From a virus, in the IMG/VR virus record IMGVR_UViG_3300027749_000047, positions 32,001 to 96,000 of that record: DNA of 64,000 nucleotides; one strand, written 5' to 3'. The notes beneath the pieces were generated by a model. It made no database searches, had not been told where the DNA came from, and worked only from the letters and a program-made list of their open reading frames with translations. The first letter of the stretch is position 1. Every line of letters begins with the position of its first letter. Of the stretch, positions 674 to 36,869 are shown piece by piece. Position numbers and translations under genes: made by a program.

Positions 674-1101
674 TTCTTTCTTCTCCTAGGCGCTACAAAT
701 GTTTTATCATCATAATCATCCATGGCTTTCTTTACATCATTTTTATTTTTAGCCAAAGCCGCTCTGCGTTCAAATGCCGTAAAGCCGCCCCAAACACCAT
801 AAGGTTCATTTGTTTTTAAAGCAGTAATTAAACAATCACGTTGCACTTCACATAATTTGCAAATAGATTTAGCATAATTTATTTGCTGTGATGACATTGG
901 TAAATCGGAGTGACCGTAAAAAATTTCTGATGGCATACCAAAACAGTATGCGTCATCCTGCCAATACTTTTTGGCCGTATAGCGCCAGGCAGGTGGAATC
1001 GATGACGTCTTGTGGTTTTTTGCATTTTTGGCAACATTCGTAGTATCTGGGATGCTTTGAGGCAAGCCATCTTTCAACGGCTTGTTTGTCCGCGTTTCCA
1101 T
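670..1101 (-). CDS. whiB: WhiB family Fe-S transcription factor
   Basis: Four Cys (AYC, ICKLC, RDC) plus the YGVWGG turn and a basic C-terminus. Start codon uncertain. Confidence 0.92.
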   Translation of the reverse strand: METRTNKPLKDGLPQSIPDTTNVAKNAKNHKTSSIPPAWRYTAKKYWQDDAYCFGMPSEIFYGHSDLPMSSQQINYAKSICKLCEVQRDCLITALKTNEPYGVWGGFTAFERRAALAKNKNDVKKAMDDYDDKTFVAPRRRKK

Positions 1102-9833: not shown

Positions 9834-10057
9834 AGGCTGAGTACGTAGTGTTCAGAAAGCGGATTAAATAACATTCACAATAACACTCCTTAAAGGTGTT
9901 GAAGTGAAAGAAGCAAAAGCAGAAAATCCGAGAACTTACCAGAGCATAGCTGTTAAAGCGAAGCGCCACTACGGTACGGAAGCCTATACATATAGTGATT
10001 AACACTGTAAAAACTAGGTGAGAATTAACCCTTGCAAACGCAGGGGTTTTTTCTTTT
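9834..10057 (+). ncRNA. Candidate structured RNA (long interrupted hairpin) ending in an intrinsic terminator
   Basis: Nested pairings AGGCT/AGCCT, GTAC/GTAC, GTAGTG/CACTAC, CGGATT/AATCCG, TTCAC/GTGAA and AACAC/GTGTT. Lies between a promoter and a terminator. Confidence 0.5.
10027..10057 (+). terminator. Intrinsic terminator
   Basis: AACCCTTGC-AAAC-GCAGGGGTT followed by TTTTCTTTT. Confidence 0.8.
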
Positions 10058-10094
10058 GATACACTTATCACATAACTACTATCAAGGAGAAGCT

Positions 10095-10511
10095 ATGGCT
10101 TTATCACGAATTACCGGTTTTCAAGCATATGCACATATGCATCAATGGATGCTGCAACACAAAAAAGGTTTTCTAGGCCATTGCCATAAAACATGTCAAG
10201 ACGCTTGGGGATTACCAGTTAAATATGCTTCAGCTATTGATGCTTGGAATCATGTGCCAAAGAAACATCAACACACTGATCTGTCTAAGATTCCAGTGGG
10301 TTCGCCAATCTTTATGGATGGTGGCCAATATGGTCACGTATGCCTCCAGTCAGACAAAAAAGGCATTGTTATATCTACAGATGCTCCAACAGCTGATTAC
10401 ATTGGTGAAGTGCCATTGGAATGGTTTACCAAGCATTGGGGTAAAAAAGTTCTTGGCTGGGCATCTCAATACAATGACGTTGATTTGCAATTAGACAAAA
10501 TGCCTGTTTAA
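10095..10511 (+). CDS. CHAP/NlpC-like cysteine-histidine peptidase, probable endolysin
   Basis: GHCHKTC..ASAIDAWN..PVGSPIF..GGQYGHV. RBS AAGGAG upstream of ATG 10095. Confidence 0.75.
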   Translation: MALSRITGFQAYAHMHQWMLQHKKGFLGHCHKTCQDAWGLPVKYASAIDAWNHVPKKHQHTDLSKIPVGSPIFMDGGQYGHVCLQSDKKGIVISTDAPTADYIGEVPLEWFTKHWGKKVLGWASQYNDVDLQLDKMPV

Positions 10512-10519
10512 ACTAGGCA

Positions 10520-10599
10520 GGGGCAGGAAGGTTTCGACTAGACATTAAGACCACACGTTGGTAGTGTCTAGGACCAGAGTTCAATTCTCTGCTGCTCCA
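10520..10599 (+). ncRNA. Minimal tmRNA-like RNA: tRNA-like domain only, no tag reading frame
   Basis: Acceptor stem GGGGCAG/CTGCTCC with G3.U70 and discriminator A; D-loop GAAGGTTTCGAC; P2 TAGACATTA/TAGTGTCTA; GGAC; T-arm CAGAG-TTCAATT-CTCTG. Confidence 0.88.
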
Positions 10600-10621
10600 C
10601 ACAAAAGAAAGTGAGAAAAAA

Positions 10622-10951
10622 ATGGAATATGAAGACCCTGTATTAACTAGATTCTATTCATTTACTAAAAAAGATTTAGAAACTGGTTGTTTAATTTGGC
10701 AAGGTGGAATAAAAGGCAAAGGCTATGGTGCTTTTAAGTTTGAAAAAGTATCTCACCGTGCACATAGATTCATTTATGAATATGTAAAAAACAATAATGA
10801 GCGTTTACCACGAGAAACAATTATTAGACACACATGTGACACCCCATTATGCGTTGACTTAAATCATTTATTACCAGGAACACATAAAGAAAACTATCAA
10901 GACTCTGTTGACCGTGGTAGAAGAATATTTAAGAAAAAAGATATTGCATGA
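10622..10951 (+). CDS. HNH homing endonuclease
   Basis: GCLIWQG..KGYG..AHRF..IRHTCDTPLCVDLNHL..GTHKEN. Confidence 0.9.
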   Translation: MEYEDPVLTRFYSFTKKDLETGCLIWQGGIKGKGYGAFKFEKVSHRAHRFIYEYVKNNNERLPRETIIRHTCDTPLCVDLNHLLPGTHKENYQDSVDRGRRIFKKKDIA

Positions 10952-11085
10952 GTACATCAGATATCATTACCGGAATGTTATTGGCCTTTTTAGGTGGGTC
11001 AATGTTTTTGTTAACGCTCATGATGATGTTTATGATATGGGATGATTATCAAGATAACAAGAAAAGACGTAACAGCAAAAAATGA
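10948..11085 (+). CDS. Small single-pass membrane protein (45 aa)
   Basis: Not in the ORF track: MSTSDIITGMLLAFLGGSMFLLTLMMMFMIWDDYQDNKKRRNSKK, with ATGA coupling at both ends. Confidence 0.65.
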   Translation: MSTSDIITGMLLAFLGGSMFLLTLMMMFMIWDDYQDNKKRRNSKK

Positions 11086-12587
11086 CCGAAGCACCTATCT
11101 TTAGCCTTGTCAGGCCACCAACTAATAAAGAAGAACTATGGTGGACTGTCAAGACTCTATGGGGTGTTGAATTACCTAGAGTACAGGTATGTCCAGATCA
11201 CACGGCTCCTTTTGATGCATTTGCGGAGGCTTATTTTGGTAACGAGTTTAACTGGGTTCTTTGGTATGGTTCGCGTGGTACTGGCAAAAGCTATATGCTT
11301 GCTCTTTTGGCCCTTACTAAAGCTGCTCTTCTTGAAATAAATGTGACACTATTGGGTGGGTCTATGGCTCAGTCACAAAACATTCACGAGCATGTTGAGT
11401 TTTTGACACAACACAAGCATGCACCTGTTCATGCAATTGAATCTATGATTAAAACACAGATTACTTTTACTGGCGGTAATTGGATTAGACCACTACCTGC
11501 ATCACAAAAGACTGTTCGTGGACCTCACCCTCAAATGACATTACTTGATGAGATTGATGAAATGGAACGCAAGATTTATGATGCTGCTATGGGTCAGGCT
11601 ATGACTAAACCCAATGCTAGAGGTGTTGAAGTTGCTGAAATGGTTGTTGCTTCGTCTACATGGCAAAATCCTGTTGGTACTTTTCAGTCTGTTATGGATG
11701 AGGCTTTGGCTAAAGGTATGCCTGTTCGTACATGGTGTTATCGTGAGCAGTTAAAGCCTCATGGGTGGATGGATCCTGATTTTATTGAGCGTAAGCGTAT
11801 GTCTGTTCCGGCTGAGATGTTTCGTGTTGAGTATGAGCTTGGTGAGCCTGCTGGTGGTTCACGTGCGTTTGATTTAGAGAAACTTAATAAGGCTTTTGTT
11901 GATTTAGAGATTGTTGATGAGCGTCATTCGGCTAATGATGATGAGTGGGTATTCGAACGACCTGTACCTACTGCTACTTATTCTGCTGGTGCCGATTGGG
12001 CTAAAGAGCAGGATAAGACTGTTATTGCTGTGTTTAGGCTTGATGAAAGTATTAGACGGCTTGTTTATTATCGTAGGTTTAATCGTACTGATTGGCCAAC
12101 AATGATTGGCGTGTTTAATCGAGTAACTACCGAGTATCAAGCTATGGCGGCGCATGATGCTACAGGTATTGGCAATGTTGTTCATGACATGGTTGATGAG
12201 CGAGTTATTAAATTTACTATGTCTTCTAATAAACGTACAGAGATGTTGACTAATTACATTACGGCTGTTGAGCAAGGTCGCTATAAGTTGCCTCGTAATA
12301 CTCCTGCGTACCTACAGCATAAGTCAACTACGGTTGAGGAAGTCTTTGGTGGTGGCGGTTGGAACTCTCATCTGTCTGATGATGTGTGTGCTTTTGCTTT
12401 GGCTCATCATGCTGCAGAGCGTATGGCTCCGCCGGCAGCTGGTGAGGGCGTTAAGAAGACAGAGTATGCTCCTGAAAAGTTTAAAGACATTACTCCTGTG
12501 TATGAGGATGATGGTCGTTATGTTACGCAAGTGGGTGCTGTTACTGTTAAAGATGATAGCGGTGTTGGAGTTTTTAATCTTTTCTAA
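11082..12587 (+). CDS. terL: Terminase large subunit
   Basis: Walker A GSRGTGKS, Walker B LLDEID, nuclease motifs GADWAK..D and SDDVCA. Confidence 0.93.
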   Translation: MTEAPIFSLVRPPTNKEELWWTVKTLWGVELPRVQVCPDHTAPFDAFAEAYFGNEFNWVLWYGSRGTGKSYMLALLALTKAALLEINVTLLGGSMAQSQNIHEHVEFLTQHKHAPVHAIESMIKTQITFTGGNWIRPLPASQKTVRGPHPQMTLLDEIDEMERKIYDAAMGQAMTKPNARGVEVAEMVVASSTWQNPVGTFQSVMDEALAKGMPVRTWCYREQLKPHGWMDPDFIERKRMSVPAEMFRVEYELGEPAGGSRAFDLEKLNKAFVDLEIVDERHSANDDEWVFERPVPTATYSAGADWAKEQDKTVIAVFRLDESIRRLVYYRRFNRTDWPTMIGVFNRVTTEYQAMAAHDATGIGNVVHDMVDERVIKFTMSSNKRTEMLTNYITAVEQGRYKLPRNTPAYLQHKSTTVEEVFGGGGWNSHLSDDVCAFALAHHAAERMAPPAAGEGVKKTEYAPEKFKDITPVYEDDGRYVTQVGAVTVKDDSGVGVFNLF

Positions 12588-35867: not shown

Positions 35868-36869
35868 ATGGCAAGAATTATTCCGAATAATAATACGTGG
35901 ATTGGATTTATTCCAGTCACATCATTTGGTTCGGCTATTTCGGGTTACAGCAACACTTGGAACTCGTCACAGGCACAACCAAACATCACCGCTGCTGAAT
36001 TAGCTTTGGCTTACGACATTACACCTTTCGTAATTTCTGTAACCGCACAGTCAACAGGTAACACTGTTCCTACGCCTTCTTTGGACACTTTGTTCGAAGG
36101 TAACGTTCCAGGTACAGTTAATGCTTCGTTTACTGCAGATTTTTACCGCGATGATGCTTCATACACTGACCTTAACGGTACTGGCGCTAACGCTGTTGAC
36201 TTTGCTTGGACTAAACTTCCACGCGGTCAAAAAGGTTACTTTGTAATCTCGCGTTTCAATGATCCAGGCAGTATTACTCAGGGTACTAACCAGTCACCTG
36301 CATCAGGTAACGTTGTTGAAATTTGGCCTGTAGTTGTAACTGCTCGTACTGCGGGTCCTGTTACATCTAACACTGTTCAGACTTTCACAGTCACTGGTGC
36401 TGTTCCACAGGAACCAGCTGAAGGTGCAAACGTTATTGCTAGTGCTAGTGCTGTTCCATCTGCTGTTGTTAACCTTGTGGCTACTCGCTTGACTCAGACT
36501 GCATCTGCTTCTGTGCCATCTATTGGTCTTGACTGGGATACTCCGGCTTACACTGGTACGCTATCTGCCGGTGGTTCAGAGGCTGCTACGCCTTATGTTA
36601 TCCAGGTTTCAACTTCAGCGACTGGTACGTTCACTGACATTACTCAGTTGACTGCGACTTCTATTGCGTCTTCAACTAATTCATTGCACGTAACTTCGGT
36701 TTCACAGGTTCTAAACACTACGCCAACTACTCCGGTAACTAGTGGTGGTGTTGCATTCACGACTTCACAGGGTACTTCAAAGACCTTGTACTTCCGTGTA
36801 GCAGCGCGTAACGCTAACGGTGTTGGTACTTACAGCAACGTTGTTTCTGTAGCGGCCGTTCACGGTTAA
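35868..36869 (+). CDS. Major tail protein with C-terminal Fn3-like domain
   Basis: NITAAELALAYDITPF..PTPSLDT..VEIWPV; C-terminal LDWDTP..YFRVAARNANGVG. Confidence 0.85.
   Translation: MARIIPNNNTWIGFIPVTSFGSAISGYSNTWNSSQAQPNITAAELALAYDITPFVISVTAQSTGNTVPTPSLDTLFEGNVPGTVNASFTADFYRDDASYTDLNGTGANAVDFAWTKLPRGQKGYFVISRFNDPGSITQGTNQSPASGNVVEIWPVVVTARTAGPVTSNTVQTFTVTGAVPQEPAEGANVIASASAVPSAVVNLVATRLTQTASASVPSIGLDWDTPAYTGTLSAGGSEAATPYVIQVSTSATGTFTDITQLTATSIASSTNSLHVTSVSQVLNTTPTTPVTSGGVAFTTSQGTSKTLYFRVAARNANGVGTYSNVVSVAAVHG

Follow-up and report, generated by a model that had tools for sequence, protein, structure and literature searches.

Background

Can a phage carry, as a working gene, nothing but the tRNA-like domain (TLD) of a tmRNA, and what would such an RNA do in a host cell? 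This question is raised by an 83-nt element at 10520-10602 of a 64-kb stretch of viral DNA, hereafter the window, which comprises bases 32001-96000 of an IMG/VR record of 135,953 bp. An earlier note made from the letters alone had described the element as a phage-encoded, complete alanyl tRNA-like domain in which the whole mRNA-like domain is replaced by a 14-nt loop, and had offered three possible functions: sequestering host SmpB, adding alanine to stalled ribosomes without a degradation tag, or countering tRNA-cleaving defences of the host. Here, we report on the anatomy of this mini-tmRNA, its relatives and covariation, its genomic surroundings, and the explanations that compete for its function.

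Results and discussion

A tRNA-like domain on a capped helix 2

On re-reading the sequence, the coordinates previously assigned to the acceptor stem, G3.U70, A73, helix segment P2a, the GGAC linker and the T-arm all proved correct (Table 1). The structure consists of three helices only, the D-arm and anticodon arm of a cloverleaf being absent, and G10522.T10596 reads as G3.U70, the alanine identity pair. The GAC of the D-loop region faces GGA at 10571-10573, matching the Rfam tmRNA consensus. P2a comprises 9 bp (TAGACATTA at 10539-10547 with TAGTGTCTA at 10562-10570), whose strands are separated by only 14 nt; hence, there is no mRNA-like domain (resume codon, tag ORF, stop codon) and none of the pseudoknots PK1-PK4. 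These 14 nt do span the whole distance between the P2a strands, as claimed, but they are not an unstructured loop, since they hold a 3-nt bulge (AGA, 10548-10550), a covarying 3-bp helix P2b (CCA/TGG, 10551-10553 with 10559-10561) and a 5-nt loop (CACGT, 10554-10558). Bulge and inner helix correspond to the bulge and second helix 2 segment of the Rfam consensus, and helix 2 is capped where a normal tmRNA holds ~290 nt of pseudoknots and tag ORF. On visual inspection, the bulge was judged not to form a kink-turn, as the 3' strand lacks a GA dinucleotide. The fold is more stable than that of dinucleotide shuffles (z = -3.3), none of 200 shuffles folding equally well. The encoded 3' tail is ACAC, so that CCA is incompletely encoded, as had been stated; probably, the mature RNA corresponds to 10520-10600 (G1 to C74) with the remainder of the CCA end added post-transcriptionally.

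Table 1 Coordinates of the mini-tmRNA gene, its parts and neighbours in the window, and of copies in cultured phages
Feature	Position	Strand	Basis or remark
TLD-only (CDS-less) mini-tmRNA gene	10520..10602	+	RF00023 match; R1 92.5 bits
Acceptor stem, 5' strand GGGGCAG	10520..10526	+	7/7 pairs with 10592-10598
D-loop region without D-stem, GAAGGTTTCGAC	10527..10538	+	aligns to GGaUUCGAC of RF00023
Helix 2	10539..10570	+	P2a, bulge, P2b and loop
GGAC linker and T-arm CAGAG / TTCAATT / CTCTG	10571..10591	+	GGAC 10571-10574; T-stem 10575-10579 / 10587-10591
Acceptor 3' strand CTGCTCC, A73 (10599), C74 (10600)	10592..10600	+	pairs with 10520-10526
Upstream ORF, possible CHAP/NlpC-P60-like peptidase (lysin)	10095..10511	+	ESM Atlas neighbours
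HNH endonuclease gene	10622..10951	+	phrog_1872, 5e-23; Pfam HNH_3 below cut-off
Terminase large subunit gene	11082..12587	+	phrog_2, 4e-17
Shaeky mini-tmRNA	MT701595 42932-43013		R1 match
Jojan60 mini-tmRNA	ON045087 37722-37804	-	R1 match
pSt2308 mini-tmRNA	PV588686 33356-33436		R1 match

The Rfam tmRNA model RF00023 matched 10520-10602 over its whole length (model positions 1-374; 57.3 bits against a gathering score of 47; E 7.8e-20) with 292 central positions skipped, which supports the earlier description of a complete, phage-encoded tRNA-like domain without its mRNA-like part. Throughout the 64 kb of the window, no other Rfam family scored above threshold, and clan competition retained tmRNA over tRNA at this locus. 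ARAGORN, by contrast, called no tRNA, tmRNA or tag peptide in the window and, across the window and 34 related loci, no tmRNA at any mini. The prediction that standard finders would miss the RNA was therefore right for ARAGORN and wrong for Infernal with Rfam, which detects it. A tRNA-Ala identity was ruled out by the absence of an ARAGORN tRNA and of D-arm and anticodon arm. Neither megablast with 2 kb round the locus nor blastn with the 83-mer gave a match among 50,697 GenBank phage records; members of other lineages, used as queries, did match cultured phages in GenBank.

A family with patchy distribution

Using the terminase large subunit protein as query, 59 related viral loci were collected, and a retrieval pattern that combined D-loop, GGAC and T-loop and allowed a 20-50-nt gap yielded 27 further loci from unrelated phages and 61 stretches from bacterial genomes. 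A covariance model, R1, was built from 21 distinct sequences, with the element of Mycobacterium phage DS6A left out. The search with R1, a step that the earlier note had suggested, recovered covarying TLD-only copies: 39 distinct sequences, drawn from viral contigs, bacterial genomes and cultured phages, match over the full length at 47-95 bits.

Within the window's clade, relatives with a terminase 81-91% identical carry the RNA, while R1 did not find it in one relative at 82% (L006) nor in those at 71% terminase identity or less, indicating a patchy distribution among terminase relatives. The RNA also occurs on contigs attributed to Streptomyces, Cellulosimicrobium, Mycobacterium, Acidimicrobiales, Christensenella, Sinomicrobium, Saccharibacteria, Microvirga and a Bacillota MAG, and the tmRNA-specific features span phages of Actinomycetota, Pseudomonadota, Bacteroidota and Bacillota. 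Three cultured phages, namely the Streptomyces phages Shaeky and pSt2308 and the Stenotrophomonas virus Jojan60, carry the RNA (R1 74-85 bits), which is unannotated in all of them. In Jojan60, a CDS annotated as "hypothetical protein" overlaps the first 29 nt of the mini-tmRNA.

Several members reside in or beside tRNA genes. In Shaeky, the RNA lies in a 136-nt stretch without annotation that separates tRNA-Phe from tRNA-Leu, within a same-strand array of more than 14 tRNA genes; that of pSt2308 is likewise situated within a tRNA cluster. A tRNA-Trp gene abuts the 3' end of the RNA in locus L008, and in L009, L023, L069 and L085 tRNA genes are found a few hundred bases or less away. These arrangements are consistent with co-transcription and tRNA-like processing. 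As a separate observation, several clade members, namely L001 (1484-1500), L023 (3264-3280), L077, L009 and L069, have a short inverted repeat (e.g. TTGCA-N6-TGCAA) whose last base immediately precedes G1. This repeat is absent at the window copy; it may serve in processing or as a promoter element.

Two groups of TLD-like elements differ from the members described above. Matches of ~79 nt in Synechococcus and Cyanobium (L093, L108, L115, L117, L124, L136, L146 and others; R1 31-36 bits) share the D-loop motif of tmRNA, a T-arm and the acceptor strand of the 3' side, but were left out of the member count as they have no pairing 5' acceptor strand; these picocyanobacterial elements may be linked to permuted tmRNA genes or island junctions. 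Genomes of Treponemataceae and Rectinemataceae (L127, L135, L140) hold 113-nt elements with a GC-rich insertion before the D-loop motif (R1 25-27 bits).

Such a phage RNA is not without precedent. Hudson, Lau and Williams (2014; PMC4131195) list "Mycobacterium phage DS6A (TLD only)", and Nawrocki, Petrov and Williams (2025; PMC11915505) place the DS6A form beside the CDS-less tmRNAs of mitochondria and some plastids. A full-text literature search for other descriptions of phage TLD-only or mini-tmRNAs found none beyond DS6A. R1, built without the DS6A element, nevertheless matches it over its full length (JN698994 28478-28560, tmRNA Website tmID 11587; 55.8 bits, E 7e-13), and the window RNA thus belongs to the same family. 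The novelty that the earlier note implied is consequently lost: the window RNA is homologous to a described element, for which the idea of SmpB titration is also in print (PMC4131195, PMC11915505). It adds an actinophage clade to a kind published from a single phage and is not new in kind; the published record, however, appears to understate the size and spread of the family considerably.

Covariation and conservation

In the 39-sequence alignment, standard pairs occupy 91.9% of pair cells, compared with 39-51% after displacing the 3' partners by 1-3 columns and with 67% in shuffles. Both sides change in 20 of the 25 base pairs, and not one of 500 shuffles reaches any of the observed measures. 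Such compensatory changes, whose absence from homologues would have spoken against the proposed structure, occur in the acceptor, P2 and T stems alike: both partners change in 9 of 10 P2a pairs and in all three P2b pairs, the T-arm is paired throughout (100%), four of its five pairs with compensatory changes, and acceptor pairs 4-7 covary, while G1-C72 and G2-C71 are invariant. Even within the window's clade, the third P2b pair appears as A-U, G-C, U-A or C-G. G3.U70 is found in 37 of 39 aligned sequences, the two apparent A-U cells being register slips of the model alignment; when registered separately, all 32 matches show seven of seven acceptor pairs with GGG...TCC. The segment TCCAC (U70-C74) is invariant throughout, positions 75-76 vary, and about one third of the members encode CCA.

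The motif GG.-TCGAC is invariant in the same alignment; yet, most members were retrieved by a pattern including it, so that the invariance of D-loop and GGAC is partly imposed. The acceptor stem, in contrast, lies outside the retrieval pattern, and its conservation is an independent observation. Among clade members fetched via the terminase, GGTATCGAC occurs as a D-loop variant. An alignment of nine clade members displays conservation from G1 to C74 with unrelated sequence on either side, a block that rules out chance, an assembly deletion or a decaying remnant.

Given homology to tmRNA and to the DS6A element together with this covariation, we are nearly certain that the window RNA is a functional phage gene, namely a tag-less, TLD-only tmRNA of the DS6A type.

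Two genomes in one record

Self-comparison of the source record revealed that bases 1-68175 match bases 68176-135953 colinearly at 72-90% identity, both halves beginning at the same point. The record is therefore two related ~68-kb phage genomes joined head to tail at window position 36175/36176 and not one 136-kb genome; probably, the join is an assembly chimera, which renders the completeness estimate of 100% misleading. GC content is 40-45%. Both genomes possess a single mini-tmRNA, at corresponding positions, that of the second genome being located outside the window at record 109671-109753 (L001 1501-1583; 61.4 bits with RF00023). The two copies are 94% identical, as against 72-90% in the alignable regions elsewhere, and their immediate flanks are unalignable; among the differences between them, an A-U pair of the inner helix is replaced by G-C, a compensatory change, and a G-C pair of P2a by G-U.

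The sister genome carries an extra 850 bp upstream of its mini-tmRNA. A tRNA-like gene is found there at L001 938-1009 (record 109108-109179; Rfam 36.6 bits, gathering score 29), which ARAGORN did not call, and a manA RNA motif (RF01745) at L001 1130-1312 (record 109300-109482), 190 nt upstream of the mini-tmRNA, scores 52.1 bits against a gathering score of 55.2 (E 9e-12). At the equivalent place in the window's genome, no manA motif was found.

Gene neighbourhood and host

DnaB helicase and primase genes occupy the minus strand up to ~9870, after which a plus-strand block starts. The stop codon of the ORF upstream of the RNA gene lies 8 nt before it. This ORF (10095..10511) has no Pfam match and a weak PHROG match (1.4e-5), while its ESM Atlas neighbours are named CHAP or NlpC_P60 with scores of 0.94-0.97, which is a lead only. 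The HNH gene starts 19 nt after the RNA gene and is followed by a 45-codon ORF and then by the terminase gene. Thus, the proposed location between endolysin and terminase holds on the downstream side, with HNH and terminase in place, whereas the lysin is suggested through language-model look-alikes. A scan for promoters and terminators round the RNA gene yielded nothing above shuffle expectation except a terminator-like hairpin with T-run at 10027-10048 (+). This hairpin overlaps the nominal TTG start of ORF 10032-10511, whose true start is more likely the ATG at 10095.

Of ~10 clade members, only three have HNH downstream of the RNA, namely the window, the sister genome (L001) and L069, and in L005 HNH lies on the opposite strand; it is therefore a variable neighbour rather than a partner, and an obligatory link between both was rejected. 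No protein neighbour of the RNA is conserved among the relatives. Searches of the whole record found no smpB, extending to both genomes what had been noticed for the window, and neither an RF-1/ArfB domain nor Pth, nor a tyrosine (Phage_integrase) or serine (Resolvase) recombinase.

A WhiB-family gene (68 bits) is present at window 760-963 (-), and the sister genome possesses its orthologue. WhiB proteins are markers of actinobacterial phages, and their presence in both genomes indicates an actinophage despite a GC content of ~42%, in agreement with the actinobacterial host assumed before. The T-arm plus acceptor 3' strand was not found with up to three mismatches in 401 sampled Actinomycetota genomes, so that no recent host copy was seen among those. 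The clade represents freshwater-type, probably lytic actinophages.

A possible competitor of host tmRNA

The stacked acceptor and T-arm constitute a substrate for RNase P and the CCA-adding enzyme, G3.U70 and A73 form the alanine identity set, which is effective even in minihelices, and SmpB binds tRNA-like domains at the D-loop/T-loop elbow. On these grounds, the overall explanation that we favour, as somewhat more probable than improbable, is a TLD-only tmRNA that is processed, charged with alanine, bound by SmpB and in competition with host tmRNA; for the mechanism in its separate steps (transcription, processing, charging, binding of SmpB and EF-Tu, competition) we would place the chances at even. 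The RNA would be transcribed together with the rightward lysin-HNH-terminase genes, its 5' end would be cut by host RNase P in the manner of a tRNA, and its 3' end would be trimmed and its CCA completed by the host CCA-adding enzyme. Host AlaRS would then charge it with alanine via G3.U70 and A73, and through the D-loop/T-loop elbow it would bind host SmpB and, once charged, EF-Tu; both alanylation and binding are suggested for the window RNA by the conserved G3.U70/A73 and elbow nucleotides. Lacking resume codon, tag ORF and pseudoknots, the mini-tmRNA cannot perform trans-translation, but it could compete with full-length host tmRNA for SmpB and stalled ribosomes, and the outcome would be lower ssrA tagging and degradation of (phage) proteins during infection.

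A role of the window RNA as an SmpB sink, the first option of the earlier note, has published precedent and would agree with the inhibition on record: both papers (PMC4131195, PMC11915505), which cite Mao et al. 2009, describe strong inhibition of E. coli tmRNA by such a molecule, perhaps via SmpB titration, and Hudson et al. (PMC4131195) report that inhibition was independent of chargeability. A pure SmpB sponge would therefore leave unexplained that every lineage nevertheless keeps G3.U70 and A73. This hints that charging and ribosome entry matter for phage minis, and the retention of charging determinants in every lineage makes tag-less rescue, or a ribosome-level block by the charged form, a serious rival.

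In tag-less rescue, the alanine-charged mini-tmRNA would enter the stalled ribosome together with host SmpB and EF-Tu and accept the nascent chain, which host ArfB, Pth or drop-off would release; ribosomes would be recycled and the protein would gain one alanine without a degradation tag, as proposed for CDS-less mitochondrial tmRNAs. We consider this possible, albeit unlikely. The full set G1-C72, G2-C71, G3.U70, A73 and C74 is kept in all lineages, although inhibition reportedly needs no charging, and jakobid mitochondria and some plastids retain a CDS-less tmRNA together with SmpB (PMC11915505). Furthermore, the last paired U of P2a and the bulge spell a stop-like triplet (UAA, UAG or UGA) in 21 of 27 lineages (<85% mutual identity), compared with 8.5 +/- 2.2 in shuffles of the same segments, where none of 2000 reaches 21; in the window, the junction reads UUAAGA at 10546-10551 (region 10545-10553). 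However, this triplet is buried inside helix 2, which argues against decoding, is absent from DS6A and five other lineages, and may be nothing more than an A-rich bulge after a closing U-A pair. Likewise, ArfB and Pth are missing from the phage record as searched, a release mechanism has been demonstrated for no CDS-less tmRNA, and the published test of a similar molecule gave inhibition and not rescue. A bolder variant, to which we attach little credence, is that minis, rather than being passive SmpB sponges, are charged, EF-Tu-delivered "anti-tagging" rescue RNAs, and that the junction UAA/UAG/UGA is either read as a message of one codon or recognized by a release or hydrolysis factor; if true, tmRNA function would have been cut to its smallest possible form, in viruses.

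It is also rather improbable that the element is a tRNA-like structure unrelated to trans-translation, acting as RNase P "punctuation" between the lysin and HNH/terminase messages or as a decoy or spare substrate for tRNA acceptor-end enzymes or toxins. Its tight, same-strand placement between two ORFs would suit such a role, and RNA genes are variable at this site in the clade, ordinary tRNA genes being found at the equivalent place in relatives and a tRNA plus a manA-like RNA in the sister genome. Yet processing alone would not keep the missing D-stem, GGUUUCGAC, GAC/GGA and G3.U70 across phages of four bacterial phyla, and a conserved protein neighbour is wanting. In addition, anticodon nucleases could not be decoyed by an RNA without anticodon loop, which leaves the earlier suggestion of countering tRNA-cleaving defences unsupported.

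Phages often carry ssrA 3' fragments as attachment sites, and one Pseudomonas phage match is annotated as attR. Still, a non-functional remnant, be it a decayed full-length phage tmRNA, an ssrA attP fragment or an assembly deletion, is scarcely credible here, as both halves are present and perfectly paired (as the earlier note had argued against an att site), neither integrase type was found in the record, conservation is much stronger in the gene than in the flanking sequence, no T-arm/acceptor sequence within three mismatches was found in the 401 Actinomycetota genomes searched, and the same architecture recurs with compensatory changes in nine independent clade assemblies (eight besides the window's) and more than 25 other lineages.

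Returning to the competing TLD-only tmRNA as the favoured explanation, mini-tmRNAs may represent a common phage tool against the ribosome-rescue and protein-tagging pathway of the host, overlooked by standard tRNA and tmRNA finders, with unannotated copies in cultured phages and in phage-like regions of several bacterial phyla, often within tRNA arrays. The cultured carriers make the question of SmpB sponge versus tag-less rescuer testable.

Comparison with known tmRNAs

The closest known counterpart is the element of DS6A. Like the window RNA, it is phage-borne, measures ~80 nt, and combines a complete acceptor with G3.U70, a ..UCGAC D-loop without D-stem, and a T-arm; it ends in A73-C74 without full CCA and has no resume codon, tag or pseudoknots. 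Its helix 2 also shares the A-rich 5' bulge and the short CCNCAYG..GG hairpin, CCGCACGCGG. Nevertheless, in the DS6A element GGAC is replaced by GGCAC, the D-loop is longer and the bulge lacks a stop-like triplet, and the element belongs to a different phage lineage, where it is placed between gp33 and a DNA polymerase III gene rather than between a lysin-like ORF and HNH/terminase. Moreover, DS6A is temperate and possesses a tyrosine integrase, of which none was found in the window's record.

With the consensus of RF00023, the model of canonical tmRNAs such as the full-length forms of cluster C mycobacteriophages and of Streptomyces phages with annotated tag peptides, the window RNA aligns in the tRNA-like domain and the first two helix 2 segments. 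The mini-tmRNA, however, is devoid of PK1, resume codon, tag ORF, stop codon and PK2-4, and without these 292 central model positions protein tagging is impossible. With tRNA-Ala and alanine minihelices it has G3.U70, A73, the 7-bp acceptor stem and the 5-bp T-arm in common, whereas, unlike tRNA-Ala, it has neither D-stem nor anticodon arm.

Compared by description, the organellar CDS-less tmRNAs (jakobid mitochondria, RF02544; Mallomonadaceae plastids, ~65 nt; PMC11915505) likewise consist of the tRNA-like domain only, with no tag frame and a presumed SmpB partner. In contrast to the phage RNA, these are encoded by organelles, are products of reductive evolution and represent the only tmRNA of the cell. 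The mini-tmRNA of a phage coexists with the full-length tmRNA of its host, and acting beside it, would be expected to compete.
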